64,000 bases of DNA, from positions 3,936,001-4,000,000 of the forward strand of contig CBDDPY010000002.1 in the NCBI GenBank assembly GCA_965232515.1, in the 5' to 3' direction. The notes below the pieces were generated by a model. The model ran no database searches and had not been told where the DNA came from. It worked only from the letters and a program-made list of their open reading frames with translations. This document shows, one piece after another, positions 17,087 to 54,376 of the stretch. Positions within the stretch are counted from its first letter, which is position 1. Each line of letters starts with the position of its first letter. The DNA comes from Alphaproteobacteria bacterium. GTDB lineage: Bacteria > Pseudomonadota > Alphaproteobacteria > GCA-2731375. A program made the translations under genes and the position numbers.

Positions 17087-17605
17087 TCATATCGACCGGC
17101 TCAGCGTCGCAACGGTTTGCCATGGGTCCTCGTCCCAGTAGCGCGCGGCGGCACCGGAGGTCGATGGCAGCACAAATAGAACGGTGCCGTCTGGCGTCAA
17201 ATCAAGGCGGCCGTATCCGATATCGCCACCAACGAACGCCTTCGCCGCTCGCTTCCCGTTAAACGCCAGGATCGCCGGCCGGAAGCGCGCGATTTTCGCC
17301 GCCAGCGCCGCCGGATCGTCATGCGACCGGCGAATGCCCGCATCGGCCCCGGCATAGTGCTTCGCCATGTCGGTGAGCCCGATACCGAATTCCGGCAACA
17401 ATGGGAACTCCGCCGGCGCGAGCCGCCGCGGCGTCAGGCCGGTCCGGTGCAGCACGTCCCAGAACTTGTTCCCGGGACCGGCATAATAGGCGCCCGCCCG
17501 CGCCGAGACCGCGCCCGCCGCGCTGCCGCAGAACACGATTTTGAGGCCGGACCGCAGCACGTCCGGCAGTTTCGGTTCGGATTCTTTTGCTGGCTTATTG
17601 GTCAT
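17087..17605 (-). CDS. mug: G/U mismatch-specific DNA glycosylase (MUG family)
   Basis: LPDVLRSGLKIVFCG, YYAGPGNKFW, GIGLTD, LPSTSG. Confidence 0.85.
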   Translation of the reverse strand: MTNKPAKESEPKLPDVLRSGLKIVFCGSAAGAVSARAGAYYAGPGNKFWDVLHRTGLTPRRLAPAEFPLLPEFGIGLTDMAKHYAGADAGIRRSHDDPAALAAKIARFRPAILAFNGKRAAKAFVGGDIGYGRLDLTPDGTVLFVLPSTSGAAARYWDEDPWQTVATLSRSI

Positions 17606-17669
17606 ACCGGCGAAGGCCGGTATCCATGTCTGAAGTCGCTAGTGGATCCTGGCCTGTGCCAGGATGACC
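17600..17669. repeat. CGTC-type REP doublet (REPIN-like), family A
   Basis: GGTCATACCGGCGAAGGCCGGTATCCA-16 nt-TGGATCCTGGCCTGTGCCAGGATGACC; same family as 52577 and 53011. Confidence 0.85.
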
Positions 17670-20645: not shown

Positions 20646-20687
20646 TGTCATGCTGGCGAAGACCAGCATCCATGGGTATCAATGACG
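20646..20687. repeat. Family A REP with truncated partner
   Basis: TGTCATGCTGGCGAAGACCAGCATCCA followed by the remnant TGGGTATCAATGACG. Confidence 0.65.
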
Positions 20688-41472: not shown

Positions 41473-43509
41473 ATGACCCAGCTCGACCTGCAAAAAGCCC
41501 AGGTCCTGGAGCATGAATACGACCCGGAAATGCATTTCCGGATGGTCGTCGGCGCGGCCGGCTATCTGGTCGCCGGCCTGCTGGCGGCGCTCTCGGCCTA
41601 TCACTATTACACCGCCGGCTTCGGCATCCTGGCCGAGCACTGGCACAAGGGCATCCATCTCGGCTTCGTGCTGGGCCTGATCTTTATCGTCTTCGGCTAC
41701 GCCAAGTCGGTGAACGACGCGCCCGCCCGCGCGGCCTGGTGGCGGCCCGGCAACGTGCCGGTCTACGACTGGCTGTTCGCCGTCGCCGCCGTCGGCTGCT
41801 CGCTCTATCTGCCGGTAACGCTGGAGTCGATGACCTTCCGCATCGGCAACCCGAACCTGACCGACATGGTCGTCGGGACCACCATGGTGTTGCTGATCCT
41901 GGAGGCAGCGCGCCGCGCCATGGGCTGGGTGCTGCCGATCATCGTCGCGGTTTTCATCCTCTACGCCGTCTTCGGCCAGATCGCGCCCGGCGCGCTGAAG
42001 CATCCCGGCACCAACTGGGCCGGCTTCATCAGCCACGTCTACATGACGACCGAGGGCATCTACGGCATCCCGGTCAAGGTCGTCGCCACCTTCGTCTTCC
42101 ATTTCGTGCTGTTCGGCACCATCGCCACGCGCATGGGCCTGGGCCAGTTCTTCATCGACATCGCCCAGGCCATCGCCGGCCGCTACACCGGCGGCCCGGC
42201 CAAGGTCAGCGTGCTGGCGTCCGCCATGTTCGGCACCATCTCGGGCTCCTCCATCGCCAACACCGTCACCACGGGCGCGCTGACCATCCCGGCCATGAAA
42301 CGCATCGGCTACCGGCCGCATTTCGCCGGCGCCGTCGAGGCGGCCAGCAGCACCGGCGGCCAGATCACGCCGCCGATCATGGGCGCCGCGGCCTTCGTGA
42401 TGATGGAGTTCCTCGAGGTCAGCTACACCACGGTGATCCTGGCCGCCCTGATACCGGCCCTGATGCACTACACCGGCGTCTTCACCAACGTGCACCTCGA
42501 AGCCAAGCGTATGGGCCTGAAAGGCCTGCCGCCCGACGTGCTGCCGAACCTCTGGCACATCCTCAAGACCGGCTGGCCGAACCTGATCCCGCTGATCATC
42601 CTGGTCACCATCATCATCCGCGGCCACACGCCGTTCATGGCTGCGTTCTGGGGCATCACCGCCTGCATCGTTGTGGGCTTCGTCAATCCCCGGCACCGCC
42701 TCAGCCTGCGCGACCTGCTCGATGCCTTCCAGCTCGGCGCCAAATACGCCCTCGCCGTCGGCGCGGCGGCGGCCGCCGTCGGCATCATCGTCGGCGTCGT
42801 CACGCTGACCGGCGTGCCGTTCCGGATCTCCTTCATCGTCACCCAGTTCGCACAGACCACGGCCGAGTTCGTCGACGCGCTGATGCCGCTGACGCTGTTC
42901 ACCCTCGACCAGCTCGTGCTGTTCTTCTCGCTCGTCTTCATCGCCGTCTGCTGCGTCGCGCTCAGCGCCGGCATCCCGACGACGGCGCTCTATATCATCG
43001 TCGCCACCATCGCCGCGCCCGTGCTGGTGCAGTTCGGCATCCCGCCCATCGCGGCGCATTTCTTCGTGCTGTTCTACGGCGTGCTGGCCGACATCACGCC
43101 GCCGGTCTGCACATCGGCCTACGCCGCCGGCGGCATCGCCGGGGCGAACCCGTTCAAGACGGGCCTTACCGCATTCCGCCTCGGCAACGCCAAGGCGCTG
43201 GTGCCGCTGGTCTTCGTCTATTCGCCGTCGCTGCTGTTGGTGACCGACGGTTTCAGCTGGCAGGAATTCGCCATCGCCTTCTCCGGCTGCGTCACCGGCG
43301 TCGTGCTGCTGGGCGCGTCGCTCAGCGGCTATCTGCTGGCGCCGATCCCGGTGCTGCAGCGCTGGGTTATGCGCTTCGCGGCCTTGCTGTTCATCGCGCC
43401 GGAACTGAAATCGGCGTTGGTCGCCGCCATCATGGTGGCGCCGATCATCGTGCTGCAGATCATCGCCCACCGCCGCGAGAAGCAGGCGGAACCGGCAGCG
43501 GCGGAGTAA
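41473..43509 (+). CDS. TRAP transporter 4TM/12TM fused permease
   Basis: GGPAKVSV, GSSIANTVTTG, ASSTGGQITPPIMGAAAF, ADITPPV. Confidence 0.94.
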   Translation: MTQLDLQKAQVLEHEYDPEMHFRMVVGAAGYLVAGLLAALSAYHYYTAGFGILAEHWHKGIHLGFVLGLIFIVFGYAKSVNDAPARAAWWRPGNVPVYDWLFAVAAVGCSLYLPVTLESMTFRIGNPNLTDMVVGTTMVLLILEAARRAMGWVLPIIVAVFILYAVFGQIAPGALKHPGTNWAGFISHVYMTTEGIYGIPVKVVATFVFHFVLFGTIATRMGLGQFFIDIAQAIAGRYTGGPAKVSVLASAMFGTISGSSIANTVTTGALTIPAMKRIGYRPHFAGAVEAASSTGGQITPPIMGAAAFVMMEFLEVSYTTVILAALIPALMHYTGVFTNVHLEAKRMGLKGLPPDVLPNLWHILKTGWPNLIPLIILVTIIIRGHTPFMAAFWGITACIVVGFVNPRHRLSLRDLLDAFQLGAKYALAVGAAAAAVGIIVGVVTLTGVPFRISFIVTQFAQTTAEFVDALMPLTLFTLDQLVLFFSLVFIAVCCVALSAGIPTTALYIIVATIAAPVLVQFGIPPIAAHFFVLFYGVLADITPPVCTSAYAAGGIAGANPFKTGLTAFRLGNAKALVPLVFVYSPSLLLVTDGFSWQEFAIAFSGCVTGVVLLGASLSGYLLAPIPVLQRWVMRFAALLFIAPELKSALVAAIMVAPIIVLQIIAHRREKQAEPAAAE

Positions 43510-51943: not shown

Positions 51944-52028
51944 GCTCGACCCGTCCCGCTCCCCCACCCGACCACCCATTGAGCATACTTCCGTGGGTGG
52001 TCGGGTGGGGGAGCGGGACGGGTCGAGC
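51944..52028. repeat. Perfect 35-bp inverted repeat with 15-nt loop
   Basis: GCTCGACCCGTCCCGCTCCCCCACCCGACCACCCA (51944-51978) and its exact reverse complement (51994-52028). Confidence 0.85.
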
Positions 52029-52061
52029 CAAACACCACAATCTCGTTTGGGAGTTGCGTTG

Positions 52062-52553
52062 ATGCCCGACCCGATAATCCGCCCGGCCCGCCCCGAGGAC
52101 GCCGACGAAATCGTCCGCCTGGTCCACGCGCTCGCCGAATACGAAAACGAGCCGGCCGACATCGTGAAGCTGACGGCCGACATGGTTCGCCGCGACGCCT
52201 TCGGCGACCGCCCGCGTTTCGAGGCGCTTTTGGCCGAGCATGACGGCGCGGTCGTGGGCCTCGCCCTCTTCTACGAGAACTACTCGACCTGGCAGTCCCG
52301 GCCGGGCCTGTTCCTGGAAGACCTGTTCGTCGAGGAACGCGTGCGCGGGCTCGGCCTCGGCCACAAGCTCATGGCCGCGCTCGCCGCCGTCGCTGTCGAA
52401 CGCGGCTACGGCCGCATCGACCTCGGCGTGCTGCACTGGAACCCGACCCGCGACTTCTACCACCGCCTCGGCTTCCACCACATCGACCAATGGCTCCCCT
52501 ACCGCCTCGAAGGCCCTGCCATCGCCGACCTGGCGAACGAGGCGGAAACTTAG
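52062..52553 (+). CDS. GNAT family N-acetyltransferase (SSAT-like)
   Basis: LAEYE, YSTWQSRPGLFLEDLFV, RGLGLG, VLHWN...FYHRLG. Confidence 0.92.
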   Translation: MPDPIIRPARPEDADEIVRLVHALAEYENEPADIVKLTADMVRRDAFGDRPRFEALLAEHDGAVVGLALFYENYSTWQSRPGLFLEDLFVEERVRGLGLGHKLMAALAAVAVERGYGRIDLGVLHWNPTRDFYHRLGFHHIDQWLPYRLEGPAIADLANEAET

Positions 52554-52576
52554 GAAAGCACGCCGCCGCCATTATC

Positions 52577-52646
52577 CGTCATCCTGGCGAAGGCCAGGAT
52601 CCACCTGCAGAATCAGCCGTGGATGCCGGCCTTCGCCGGCATGACG
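52577..52646. repeat. CGTC-type REP doublet, family A (upstream of GIY-YIG gene)
   Basis: CGTCATCCTGGCGAAGGCCAGGATCCA-16 nt-TGGATGCCGGCCTTCGCCGGCATGACG. Confidence 0.9.
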
Positions 52647-52674
52647 AACAGGGGTCGATTCACTAGAGTTCGAT

Positions 52675-52968
52675 ATGTACGAGCCTGGCTACGTCTACAT
52701 CATGACGAACCGCCGCAATGGCACGCTCTACATTGGCGTAACGTCCGATTTGGTAAGGCGCGCCTACGAACACCGTACCGGTACCGTTCCCGGCTTCACC
52801 AAACGCTATAGCCTGAAGAAACTCGTCTACTACGAAGTGCACGGCGACATCGAAGCCGCGATCGCACGGGAAAAAGCCATGAAAAACTGGCGGCGCGCTT
52901 GGAAGCTCAAACGCATCATTGAGATGAACCCGGGCTGGCGAGATCTGTTCGACGACATCGCCTCCTAG
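52675..52968 (+). CDS. Stand-alone GIY-YIG nuclease family protein
   Basis: GYVYIM...GTLYIGVTSDLVRRAYEH, FTKRY, AIAREKAMKNWRRAWK, NPGWRDL. Confidence 0.93.
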   Translation: MYEPGYVYIMTNRRNGTLYIGVTSDLVRRAYEHRTGTVPGFTKRYSLKKLVYYEVHGDIEAAIAREKAMKNWRRAWKLKRIIEMNPGWRDLFDDIAS

Positions 52969-53010
52969 TTCAAGGCGGTGTTACGAGCCCAACTTCAAAA
53001 ACACCAAGTC

Positions 53011-53079
53011 CGTCACCCCGGCGAAGGCCGGGGTCCACCTGCGACTGCTGTATGGATGCCGGCCTACGCCGGCATGACG
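53011..53079. repeat. CGTC-type REP doublet, family A (downstream of GIY-YIG gene)
   Basis: CGTCACCCCGGCGAAGGCCGGGGTCCA-15 nt-TGGATGCCGGCCTACGCCGGCATGACG. Confidence 0.9.
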
Positions 53080-53101
53080 ACGAGAAAGCTGTAACCGTTA
53101 G

Positions 53102-53171
53102 TGTCGTCCTGGCAAAGGCCGAAATCCAATCGCAGCATTAGCCATGGAAGCCAGCCTTCGCCGAGTTGACG
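53102..53171. repeat. Degenerate family A REP doublet
   Basis: TGTCGTCCTGGCAAAGGCCGAAATCCA-16 nt-TGGAAGCCAGCCTTCGCCGAGTTGACG. Confidence 0.7.
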
Positions 53172-53186
53172 ACGTCCGGACTGCCC

Positions 53187-54263
53187 TCACTCCGCCGCGG
53201 CGATGGTCTCCTCGACCCGGCGCTTGGCATCGAACTCCTCGGCGACCTGCTGGTCCTGGTCGAGCAGCGCACCAATGTCGATGTTGGGATCGGTGAATTC
53301 GAGCACGCCCATCTTCACATAAGCGTCCTGCACCTTCTCGCTCCACAGCCCGATGTCGCGCACGACGGGCACGATGCGCGAGAACAGGCGCGAGCGGAAC
53401 AGCCGCATGGCCTCCGACTTCTCGACCCACTCGATGCATTCCTTCTCCGGCAGGCCCAGCACGCCCCAGAGCTCGGCCGAGGTAAAGCGGTCGCGCATGT
53501 GCAGGCTGGCCTCGATCACGAACTCCTCGCGCTCGGCCCGCTCGGCCTCAGTCAGCTCGGGGTAGTATTCGCGCAGCGCCAGCCGGCCGAAGGCGACATG
53601 CCGAGCCTCGTCCTGCATGACATAGGCGTTCACCGAGGCGGCGAGCGGGTTCTGGCTCATGTCGCGAATAGCGTGGAAGGCGGCCAGCGCCAGGCCCTCG
53701 ATCAGCACCTGCATGCCGAGATAGGTGAAGTCCCAGCGCTTGTCGTGGACGATGTCCTCCAACAGCGCCTGCAACGGCCCGGTGATGGGATAGGCCAGCT
53801 CGAACTTCTCGTGCAGCAGCCGGGAATAGGCCTCGACATGCCGGGCCTCGTCTATCACTTGCGTCGCCGCGTAGAACTTGGCGTTGATGTCGGGCACCTG
53901 CTCGACGATCTTGGCGGTGCAGATCAGCGCGCCCTGCTCGCCGTGCAGGAACTGCGAGATCTGCCAGGCCTGGGCATGGTGGCGCAGCTTGACCTTCTCC
54001 TTGTCGGTCAGCTTGTCCCAATAGGGCGAGCCGTAGATGCGGATCATCTCGTCCGGCATCATCATCGGGTTCTCGGGGTCCAGGTCCTGCGACCAGTCGA
54101 TGCGGTCTGCCGCGTCCCACTGCTGCTTCTTGCCCTTGTCGTAGAGCTTCAGCAGGCTGTCGCTGGCGTCCTCGTACTCCCAGGTGAACCGCACCTCGTT
54201 CTCGCCGTCGAGCTTCCACTCGGTCTGCTCGACCGGCAACGTATACCGATGCACTGATGCCAT
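53187..54263 (-). CDS. Ferritin-like diiron protein (AurF/N-oxygenase-like)
   Basis: QFLHGEQGAL, DEARHVE, LIEGLAL, DEARHVAFG: two ExxH diiron motifs. Confidence 0.85.
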   Translation of the reverse strand: MASVHRYTLPVEQTEWKLDGENEVRFTWEYEDASDSLLKLYDKGKKQQWDAADRIDWSQDLDPENPMMMPDEMIRIYGSPYWDKLTDKEKVKLRHHAQAWQISQFLHGEQGALICTAKIVEQVPDINAKFYAATQVIDEARHVEAYSRLLHEKFELAYPITGPLQALLEDIVHDKRWDFTYLGMQVLIEGLALAAFHAIRDMSQNPLAASVNAYVMQDEARHVAFGRLALREYYPELTEAERAEREEFVIEASLHMRDRFTSAELWGVLGLPEKECIEWVEKSEAMRLFRSRLFSRIVPVVRDIGLWSEKVQDAYVKMGVLEFTDPNIDIGALLDQDQQVAEEFDAKRRVEETIAAAE

Positions 54264-54376
54264 TCCCAAATCTCCCCGGCGTTGTGGCCCTCTAGCGTTT
54301 TCGCCTTGCGTGGTTTGATGTCCGTGTTTGATGTCTGCGGCGCCTGTTCCTCCCCTTGACATGCCCAGGCACCTTA

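Follow-up and report, generated by a model that had tools for sequence, protein, structure and literature searches.

A probable Ssn-family GIY-YIG endonuclease gene bracketed by CGTC-tagged hairpin doublets in an alphaproteobacterial genome

Introduction

Single-domain GIY-YIG proteins of approximately 94 amino acids (CDD cd10448) constitute the Ssn family (Chenal et al. 2025, Nat Commun 16:2388, PMC11893778). The 94-amino-acid enzyme from Neisseria meningitidis binds the sequence CGTCATTCCCGCGMAVGCGGGAATCYRG only as single-stranded DNA (ssDNA) and only on the forward strand, and cuts it a few bases upstream; mutation of Y6, Y17, or E64 abolishes cutting. The three bases on the 5' side of the palindrome matter for cutting and the C on its other side for binding, and an altered stem sequence abolishes activity even when the hairpin is kept. 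Homologs in N. elongata, N. wadsworthii, and Wolbachia pipientis each cut their own motifs, and the characterized homologs do not cut double-stranded DNA (dsDNA). The published motif (SRM) is found at 71% of homolog loci and on both sides of the gene at 42%, and the gene is present in 81% of genomes with more than 200 SRMs. The sole role demonstrated for Ssn is the restriction of incoming motif-bearing ssDNA in N. meningitidis, in which the enzyme lowers transformation by motif-bearing DNA; an insertion sequence (IS)-like layout and a parallel with transposase-associated palindromic repeats are raised as a hypothesis in the Discussion only (PMC11893778). In this study, a stretch of 64,000 nucleotides from an alphaproteobacterial genome (referred to as the window; C2:3936001-4000000 of the 7.39-Mb source assembly, labelled G000) was analyzed, in which the gene for a 97-amino-acid GIY-YIG protein is bracketed by inverted doublets of CGTC-tagged hairpins. 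The gene very probably encodes an ssDNA-specific endonuclease of the Ssn family, with the surrounding and dispersed CGTC hairpins as its recognition motifs (NTS/SRM), and the locus is a further example of the already published pairing between Ssn genes and repeats.

In the arrangement known as a REPtron, the gene for a REP-associated tyrosine transposase (RAYT, or TnpA-REP) is flanked by repetitive extragenic palindromes (REPs) carrying a GTAG tag, and doublets of such REPs are called REPINs. REPs with a CGTC tag, on the other hand, "apparently lack a dedicated transposase" (Di Nocera, De Gregorio and Rocco 2013, BMC Genomics 14:522, PMC3733652). An earlier note on the present DNA, made from the sequence alone, had stated that no enzyme was characterized for this repeat class; this is out of date, because the report on Ssn (PMC11893778) predates it.

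Results

Properties of the GIY-YIG protein

The 97-amino-acid protein contains one Pfam GIY-YIG domain (PF01541; residues 5-78, E 4.6e-16) and was modelled by AlphaFold2 as one compact domain with a confident GIY-YIG fold (mean pLDDT 92.5), in agreement with the size and single-domain architecture of Ssn. In a 25-row alignment of relatives, Y8, Y19, H33, E66, and N85 were invariant and R29 was nearly so. The catalytic Tyr/Tyr/Glu set of Ssn is therefore complete (Y8, Y19, and E66), and these residues would correspond to Y6, Y17, and E64 of the Neisseria enzyme, as judged from a two-residue offset rather than a direct alignment. Only one copy of this nuclease type was found in the source genome.

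The closest solved folds to the model were UPF0213 (1zg2, the top Foldseek match), Slx1 (6seh; TM 0.59, root-mean-square deviation 2.6 Å), the N-terminal domain of UvrC, and I-TevI, with no Ssn structure among the PDB entries searched. Although proteins of the UPF0213/YhbQ type (PDB 1zg2 and 1ywl) share the minimal GIY-YIG fold (profile E-values of 1.8e-6 and 2.7e-4), these and Slx1 are only ~27-32% identical to the 97-amino-acid protein. Slx1 is a structure-specific nuclease, and we know of no repeat partner reported for either family. Homing endonucleases of the I-TevI type, which cut dsDNA at alleles without the intron or gene, differ in carrying a separate DNA-binding domain, which the 97-amino-acid protein lacks.

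Published assignment to Ssn uses a blastp E-value <1e-10 with ≥75% cover to SsnA, or cd10448 (GIY-YIG_unchar_3) as the top CDD match, within a homolog set cut at 150 amino acids (PMC11893778). Supplementary Data 4 of the same report lists an ssnA/cd10448 homolog in Maritalea mediterranea, Magnetospirillum aberrantis SpK, and Shewanella litoralis, and these three organisms are the sources of relatives at our loci L066, L043, and L069, which are 58-64% identical to the 97-amino-acid protein.

Hairpin units surrounding the gene

The spacer between the neighbouring genes contains six copies of a 27-bp unit in which CGTC precedes a hairpin with a stem of 8 bp and a loop of 4 nt, and CCA follows it (Table 1). 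Doublet 1 ends 28 bp on the 5' side of the ATG and doublet 2 begins 42 bp on the 3' side of the stop codon; their inverted arms are 28 nt (86% complementary, 14 nt apart) and 27 nt (81%, 15 nt apart), respectively. The coordinates, the distances between gene and doublets, the GIY-YIG gene itself, and the decayed third doublet described in the earlier note were all exact on re-examination. The four intact units are perfect copies and are predicted to fold in ssDNA into hairpins with an 8-bp stem and a 4-nt loop (-8.5 to -12 kcal/mol, z -2.5 to -3.6), whereas those of the third doublet, 15 bp away from the AurF-like stop codon, no longer fold as hairpins (z -0.16 and -0.52). Matches to the published SRM were found at 52577-52604 (+), 52619-52646 (-), 53011-53038 (+), and 53052-53079 (-), and the gene accordingly has an SRM within 500 bp on both its 5' and 3' sides. 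Rfam gave only two sub-threshold chance matches in 52000-53600.

The pattern CGTC-N8-N4-N8-CCA with fixed core letters matched the window 11 times against 1.18 expected, and none of 100 shuffles reached 11. Nine of these matches are genuine units: six at the nuclease locus, two in a gene-less doublet at 17600, and one at 20646, so that the distant members of the family noticed previously were recovered by the scan. The remaining matches, at 42159 and 62775, look like chance and were not counted as units.

Table 1. Positions of the nuclease gene, hairpin units, and neighbouring features (window coordinates, except for those prefixed C2, which are assembly coordinates)
Feature	Position	Strand	Basis or remark
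ssn-type gene, 97-amino-acid single-domain GIY-YIG nuclease	52675-52968	+	Open reading frame and Pfam PF01541
Hairpin unit 1, GAAG loop, forward (cleavable-type) motif	52577-52603	+	0 pattern mismatches; SRM match; -8.5 kcal/mol, z -3.17
Hairpin unit 2, forward motif	52620-52646	-	Pattern and SRM match; -12 kcal/mol, z -3.18
Doublet 1 (units 1 and 2), tail-to-tail	52577-52646		Spacer typical of the 65-70-bp class of the genome
Hairpin unit 3, forward motif	53011-53037	+	Pattern and SRM match; -10.7 kcal/mol, z -2.54
Hairpin unit 4, forward motif	53053-53079	-	Pattern and SRM match; -10.3 kcal/mol, z -3.55
Doublet 2 (units 3 and 4)	53011-53079
Third doublet, decayed	53102-53171		Both units with 2 pattern mismatches; 77% identical to doublet 1
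Gene-less doublet, same repeat family	17600-17669		Pattern scan
Single unit, same repeat family	20646-20672	+	2 pattern mismatches; pattern scan and SRM match
633-bp spacer from GNAT gene to AurF-like di-iron gene, containing the whole repeat-nuclease block	52554-53186
GNAT acetyltransferase gene, left neighbour	51993-52553	+
AurF-like di-iron oxygenase gene, right neighbour, convergent with the GNAT gene	53187-54362	-
Y1_Tnp (IS200/RAYT-like) gene	C2:3708196-3708483	-	Above Pfam cut-off
Y1_Tnp (IS200/RAYT-like) gene	C2:5932606-5932827	+	Above Pfam cut-off

Linkage of gene and tagged hairpins among relatives

At E ≤1e-5, 7578 of the 7584 candidates scored were relatives of the 97-amino-acid protein. 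Linkage was assessed in the best 80 of at least 572 confirmed relatives (one genome per species; 53-68% identical), which came from Alpha-, Beta-, Gamma-, and Deltaproteobacteria, candidate-phyla bacteria, Planctomycetes, Ignavibacteria, Cyanobacteria, Nitrospirota, and others. A tagged hairpin was defined as a perfect hairpin (stem ≥7, loop 3-6) with GTC no more than 5 nt on the 5' side and CC directly on the 3' side. Within 150 bp of the gene, 140 tagged hairpins were found in 23,564 bp (5.94 per kb), compared with 119 in 1,128,387 bp at distances of more than 300 bp (0.105 per kb), corresponding to ~56-fold enrichment; the densities of untagged hairpins in the same two zones were 1.74 and 0.558 per kb. 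The suggestion of the earlier note that this type of nuclease is the partner of CGTC hairpins is thus supported. At least one tagged hairpin was near the gene at 65 of the 80 loci and on both sides at 44, and the nearest unit was oriented with GTC outward in 45 vs 10 cases upstream and 45 vs 9 downstream. The published SRM gave the same picture: 49 of the 80 loci had one within 500 bp, 31 had it on both sides, and the density was 1.26 per kb near the gene vs 0.049 far from it. The canonical NTS of Neisseria (≤1 mismatch) was present at 12 loci.

In the commonest layout (25 of 80), GTC-hairpin-CCAG is followed after ~35 bp by the gene and, a further ~19 bp downstream, by CTGG-hairpin-GAC, so that the gene lies inside one doublet. 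The doublet-gene-doublet layout of the source locus also recurs (for example, at L041, L075, L078, and L081). In the taxonomic family of the source organism, homologs were carried by 11 of 33 genomes, and a tagged hairpin was close to the gene at 12 of the 14 loci inspected.

The co-variation of enzyme and repeat was examined on a tree of 91 proteins (L054 and L056, with stops in the translated match, were omitted), in which 75 rows carried a hairpin label (50 with a 4-nt loop and 25 with a 5-nt loop). The loop class changed 7 times, whereas in 300 shuffles of the labels it changed 21.1 times on average and never fewer than 14; the host class changed 33 times on the same tree (72 of the labelled rows). 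In the 26 rows from Alphaproteobacteria, the loop class changed 4 times, compared with an average of 8.2 and no fewer than 5 after shuffling. The lineage of the nuclease and the type of hairpin change together.

Among 301 Alphaproteobacteria genomes of at least 90% completeness, the gene was present in 27 of the 33 that were repeat-loaded (≥10 units of the 8/4 type) and in 69 of the other 268; the corresponding number for repeat-loaded genomes was 25 of 31 when the unpublished G063 and G237 were excluded. Six of the 33 loaded genomes lacked the gene. In one genus of the source family, four gene-bearing genomes have 25-57 units, and of 17 gene-less genomes, fifteen have no more than 11 units and two have 66 (G019) and 38 (G006); no Ssn-type gene was found in either of these two even when the profile search was made looser. 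In the 700-contig assembly of the sister genome G024, numerous repeat units are located no more than ~100 bp from a contig end, and for many of the homologous proteins the sole source is a contig of 0.5-2 kb. Since the repeats seem to break short-read assemblies, counts of genes and repeats from draft genomes are probably underestimates.

Repeat family in the source genome

The SRM motif alone is noisy in this GC-rich genome (140 matches vs 60-78 in five simulated genomes), and genome-wide counts were therefore based on a stricter consensus of the family. This consensus detected 105 units at ≤2 mismatches, compared with 1 in the reversed-genome control, and together with 3 weaker neighbours they form 60 loci, none of which, except that of the nuclease, holds more than three units. 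Forty-two tail-to-tail doublets with the GTC ends outward fell into size classes of 65-70 bp (22), 84-86 bp (18), and 94 bp (2), with the spacer conserved inside each class. Because the eighteen 84-86-bp doublets could be aligned from tag to tag only, the whole doublet is the repeated unit, as in REPINs. An initial impression that doublet orientation switches along the chromosome with the direction of replication was dropped, since no consistent pattern emerged for the 84-86-bp doublets relative to the extremes of the cumulative GC skew (5.81 and 1.38 Mb).

Three of the eight stem positions vary, and in the 105 units, these were Watson-Crick paired in 93, 91, and 91% of cases, compared with 74, 36, and 55%, respectively, under column independence; stem position 3 shows each of the four pair types. 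Stem covariation, inferred previously from a few copies, is accordingly real. On the other hand, there is hardly any variation in the remaining five stem pairs or in either tag, which indicates that the sequence is conserved as well as the shape. The earlier view that the hairpin rather than the sequence is conserved is weakened by this and by the loss of activity reported when the palindrome is altered and the hairpin kept (PMC11893778).

The repeats have the characters of CGTC REPs: an unpaired CGTC, many copies, and inverted dimers, with the tags unpaired in the predicted folds. The stem variant A-T/C-N-C-Y-G-G-C, whose loops are mostly GAAG or GCAG, accounts for 96 units in G000 and 287 in G024, whereas each of the 31 remaining family genomes has 0-3; it is confined to the genus of the source genome. 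No tagged hairpin was found within 400 bp of three other stand-alone GIY-YIG genes or of the two Y1_Tnp genes of the source genome, nor, by the stricter scan only, within ~1.5 kb of the UvrC-like GIY-YIG locus (L010).

A second, unrelated hairpin repeat (CTCTCCCGC, 2-6 nt, GCGGGAGAG) occurs in 46 copies in the genome and 0 in the reversed control, often paired ~50 bp apart (for example, at C2:1666320-1666400). It has 0 copies in the window and none within 400 bp of either Y1 transposase gene.

Comparison with a sister genome

The empty junction between the GNAT and di-iron genes that the earlier note advised looking for was found in G024: the two genes are separated by 27 bp there, with no repeat and no nuclease gene, vs 633 bp in the source, and the flanking GNAT and AurF-like proteins are 91 and 94% identical, respectively. 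The 595-bp block is thus an insertion or deletion relative to the sister species. G024 has its own copy of the nuclease (78% identical) at a different locus. The doublet at 17600 is also missing from the matching site of G024 (113 bp in the source vs 16 bp). When 20 doublets of G024 were examined, 2 were shared at the matching site of G000 and six had flanks that are 9-39 bp apart in G000 vs 178-429 bp in G024, the remaining 12 not being assignable as shared or missing. Gains cannot be distinguished from losses on the basis of absence at a sister site. In a different genome bin, two cassettes on different contigs (L077 and L082) are 88% identical over 413 bp; GTCAT and GACG mark the two limits of the likeness, beyond which the sequences are unrelated. 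Turnover of doublets and unit-like boundaries were therefore seen, and these comparisons do not identify the catalyst. The junctions between species are too diverged or complex for target-site duplications to be read, apart from one possible, ambiguous 6-bp duplication at L148.

Many 85-bp doublets of G024 form the core of a ~170-bp palindromic element with outer inverted ends (of the CTCAGAGCGTGTGAA.GAATT type), as at L136 560-745, L144 500-930, and L147 493-815, and this element may explain the threefold higher unit count of G024. Outer flanks of this type were found in G000 at two doublets only, C2:2092279 and C2:4051087.

The place in G000 that matches the ssn locus of G024 was considered as an empty site and rejected: it holds a different small gene and a copy of the second repeat and is a variable spot. 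The small reverse-strand frame there (C2:1665890-1666448, vs L011 1268-1825) looks VOC/glyoxalase-like by eye from its translation.

In contigs of the public runs X2 and X3, the source stretch was unchanged. Contigs of X4, a relative represented by an RNA library (~95% alike), cover the GNAT and AurF-like genes and not the cassette, and no contig bridges the gap; the one joint in X4, from 52603 to 53052 with 126 other letters between, is another doublet locus of that organism.

Expression signals and defence-system search

A promoter scan detected 0 sigma-70-like sites in 52400-53300, and one terminator-like site in this region was at chance level. By eye, a putative weak -35/-10-like pair below the scan threshold (8/12 matches) can be seen at 52641-52675: ATGACG, which is the tag end of unit 2, 17 bp, and TAGAGT, which ends 5 bp upstream of the ATG. 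If this pair is real, the nuclease gene would have a nearly leaderless transcript; no Shine-Dalgarno-like run is evident by eye in the 28-bp gap before the ATG. PADLOC gave nothing meaningful (E 0.009).

Discussion

An intact active site, the motif on both sides of the gene, and an oriented linkage of gene and hairpin across phyla were all observed, and it is these that argue for an enzyme of the Ssn family. As in published Ssn loci, the protein is a ~95-amino-acid single-domain GIY-YIG protein with conserved Tyr, Tyr, and Glu (PMC11893778), CGTC-tagged hairpins, which are also dispersed in the genome, lie on either side of the gene, and the units match the SRM, with close relatives flanked by canonical NTS. 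The source differs in its genus-confined stem variant, in the position of the gene between two complete doublets rather than inside one, and in the density of the repeat (105 units per 7.39 Mb vs 432 SRM elements per 2.16 Mb in N. meningitidis; PMC11893778).

The biochemistry and cellular role of the 97-amino-acid protein are taken from its characterized homologs. The earlier note had proposed recognition of an ssDNA hairpin and a nick near the tag; both have been demonstrated for four homologs (PMC11893778) and, by homology, would apply here. The protein would bind the hairpin solely in ssDNA, and solely on the strand reading CGTC-stem-loop-stem-CCA, and would cut the bound strand hydrolytically with Mg2+ a few bases on the 5' side of the tag. 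On the + strand, cuts are predicted immediately left of 52577 and 53011, and on the - strand immediately right of 52646 and 53079, so that they would approach the source gene from both sides; in the common cassette layout, one cut would be made per strand, just outside each end. A doublet has a single forward motif per strand, and the enzyme by itself should therefore be unable to excise a single-stranded piece as IS200/IS605 transposases do, and any spread would then need host replication or repair.

Several points weigh against an Ssn assignment. In most relatives the gene is enclosed by a single doublet, and the layout of the source locus departs from this commonest one: the gene sits between two complete doublets, so that the tag ends point towards it. 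Several stem variants coexist with a single gene in the source genome, and since the stem sequence matters in the published work (PMC11893778), some units may be poor substrates. Membership is indirect, through relatives listed as Ssn homologs rather than through a score against N. meningitidis SsnA or cd10448, and suggests rather than establishes the family. No NCBIfam model was above its cut-off for the protein; the group I intron endonuclease model scored 19.7 bits vs a cut-off of 56.

The locus resembles REPtrons in several features: a single-copy gene is bracketed by inverted copies of a hairpin repeat that populates the genome, doublets with a conserved spacer act as the repeated unit, and the presumed substrate is an ssDNA hairpin that would be cut at or near its unpaired tag. 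However, the enzyme is a hydrolytic GIY-YIG protein and not an HUH/Y1 protein with a covalent intermediate, the tag is CGTC rather than the GTAG of RAYT REPs, and mobilization by Ssn is so far a hypothesis only. With the CGTC REP superfamily (PMC3733652), the repeats share a short GC-rich stem-loop with CGTC unpaired at one of its ends, an intergenic distribution as monomers and inverted dimers in Alphaproteobacteria, and tyrosine transposases that are not flanked by CGTC repeats, which matches the remark made in 2013 on other species. The difference is that the 2013 report concluded that a dedicated transposase is apparently missing, while the paper on Ssn supplies a partner nuclease.

Whether the nuclease is also responsible for duplicating or relocating the tag-bounded doublets and its own cassette, as the missing mobilizing enzyme of the CGTC REP superfamily in a REPtron-like system, is a distinct matter that would extend, and does not exclude, the assignment to Ssn; we regard this as a tentative proposition that is rather doubtful at present. 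Nicks outside the tags would have to be processed by host replication or repair, since the enzyme cannot join DNA: we know of no covalent intermediate or strand transfer in the GIY-YIG superfamily, whose enzymes are hydrolytic, and one predicted cut per strand per doublet is unlike the two-end cutting of IS200/IS605. Consistent with movement are the likeness of the L077 and L082 cassettes exactly from tag to tag between unrelated flanks, the tag-to-tag alignment and conserved spacer of the 18 source doublets of 84-86 bp, the absence of the 595-bp block and the 17600 doublet from G024, whose own nuclease copy lies elsewhere, and the differences among the 20 G024 doublets (2 shared, six with close flanks in G000), although at such sites gain and loss are indistinguishable and the junctions are too diverged for target duplications. 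The insertions in G024 also often exceed the doublet and carry outer inverted repeats, so that another agent may move them. The abundance of the stem variant in only G000 and G024 among the family genomes, and the joint change of nuclease lineage and hairpin class, fit an enzyme that propagates its own repeat; gene-less repeat-loaded genomes (6 of 33 in the class sample, and also G019 and G006) and the single copy of the gene in the source genome do not. From the literature, the absence of any transposase linked to CGTC REPs in the survey of Di Nocera et al. (2013, PMC3733652) and the IS-like layout remarked on by Chenal et al. (PMC11893778) point in the same direction as movement. The claim in the earlier note that the cassette is an autonomous element mobilizing the dispersed doublets is therefore unproven, and appears in PMC11893778 as a Discussion hypothesis only.

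Gene-less but repeat-rich genomes would be accommodated by a homing-type selfish gene, for which existing hairpins serve as landing pads where the gene is copied in by repair, the repeats being targets that spread otherwise. The gene was seen inside doublets, between doublets, and beside single units, and at different loci in the sister species. Moreover, its phylogeny disagrees with host taxonomy (33 host-class changes on 72 rows) and identity is 53-68% across phyla, which suggests horizontal movement. We nevertheless consider homing improbable. Classical homing requires a double-strand break, and the 97-amino-acid protein lacks, by Pfam and in the model, the extra DNA-binding domain of GIY-YIG homing enzymes. 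The characterized homologs do not cut dsDNA (PMC11893778). In addition, most genomes have one to few gene copies in spite of tens to hundreds of potential sites, and flanking hairpins offer only ~27-70 bp of homology. It is least credible, and hardly conceivable on these data, that ordinary intergenic REPs acting as terminators or mRNA stabilizers simply piled up beside a small gene with no functional link. REPs are commonly located after genes (Di Nocera et al. 2013, PMC3733652), and the third doublet does lie 15 bp from the AurF-like stop; yet the 56-fold enrichment with fixed orientation at 80 loci in many phyla, together with the SRM enrichment there, contradicts this reading, as do the exceptional number of units at this one locus of 60, the lack of hairpins at other small GIY-YIG genes, and the binding and cutting published for homologs (PMC11893778).

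The probable identification of the gene as an Ssn-type endonuclease with its own CGTC motifs brings one more nuclease-motif pair into a family that attracts interest for ssDNA-cutting tools. The larger question is whether Ssn nucleases spread the CGTC hairpins of many phyla, which the 2013 survey and the 2025 paper leave unsettled. The terms "Nocera", "REPIN", and "RAYT" each occur 0 times in the text of Chenal et al. (PMC11893778), so that the work on the repeat and that on the enzyme have not been explicitly joined. Our literature search, in which likely citing papers were judged by title and abstract, retrieved no publication showing that Ssn moves CGTC repeats, and no relevant link of GIY-YIG proteins to REPs, REPINs, dRS3, or miniature inverted repeats apart from Chenal et al. 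Ssn cassettes and their doublets could conceivably represent a second, non-HUH kind of REPtron and REPIN, in which a hydrolytic ssDNA nickase together with host replication or repair generates and spreads the entire CGTC REP superfamily, an idea we offer with some reserve. Since the two genomes differ at many repeat sites, the sister pair is a usable test system for the question of spreading, and, if the idea is true, the genus of the source organism, with 96 and 287 units and many site differences between two species, would be a live example.

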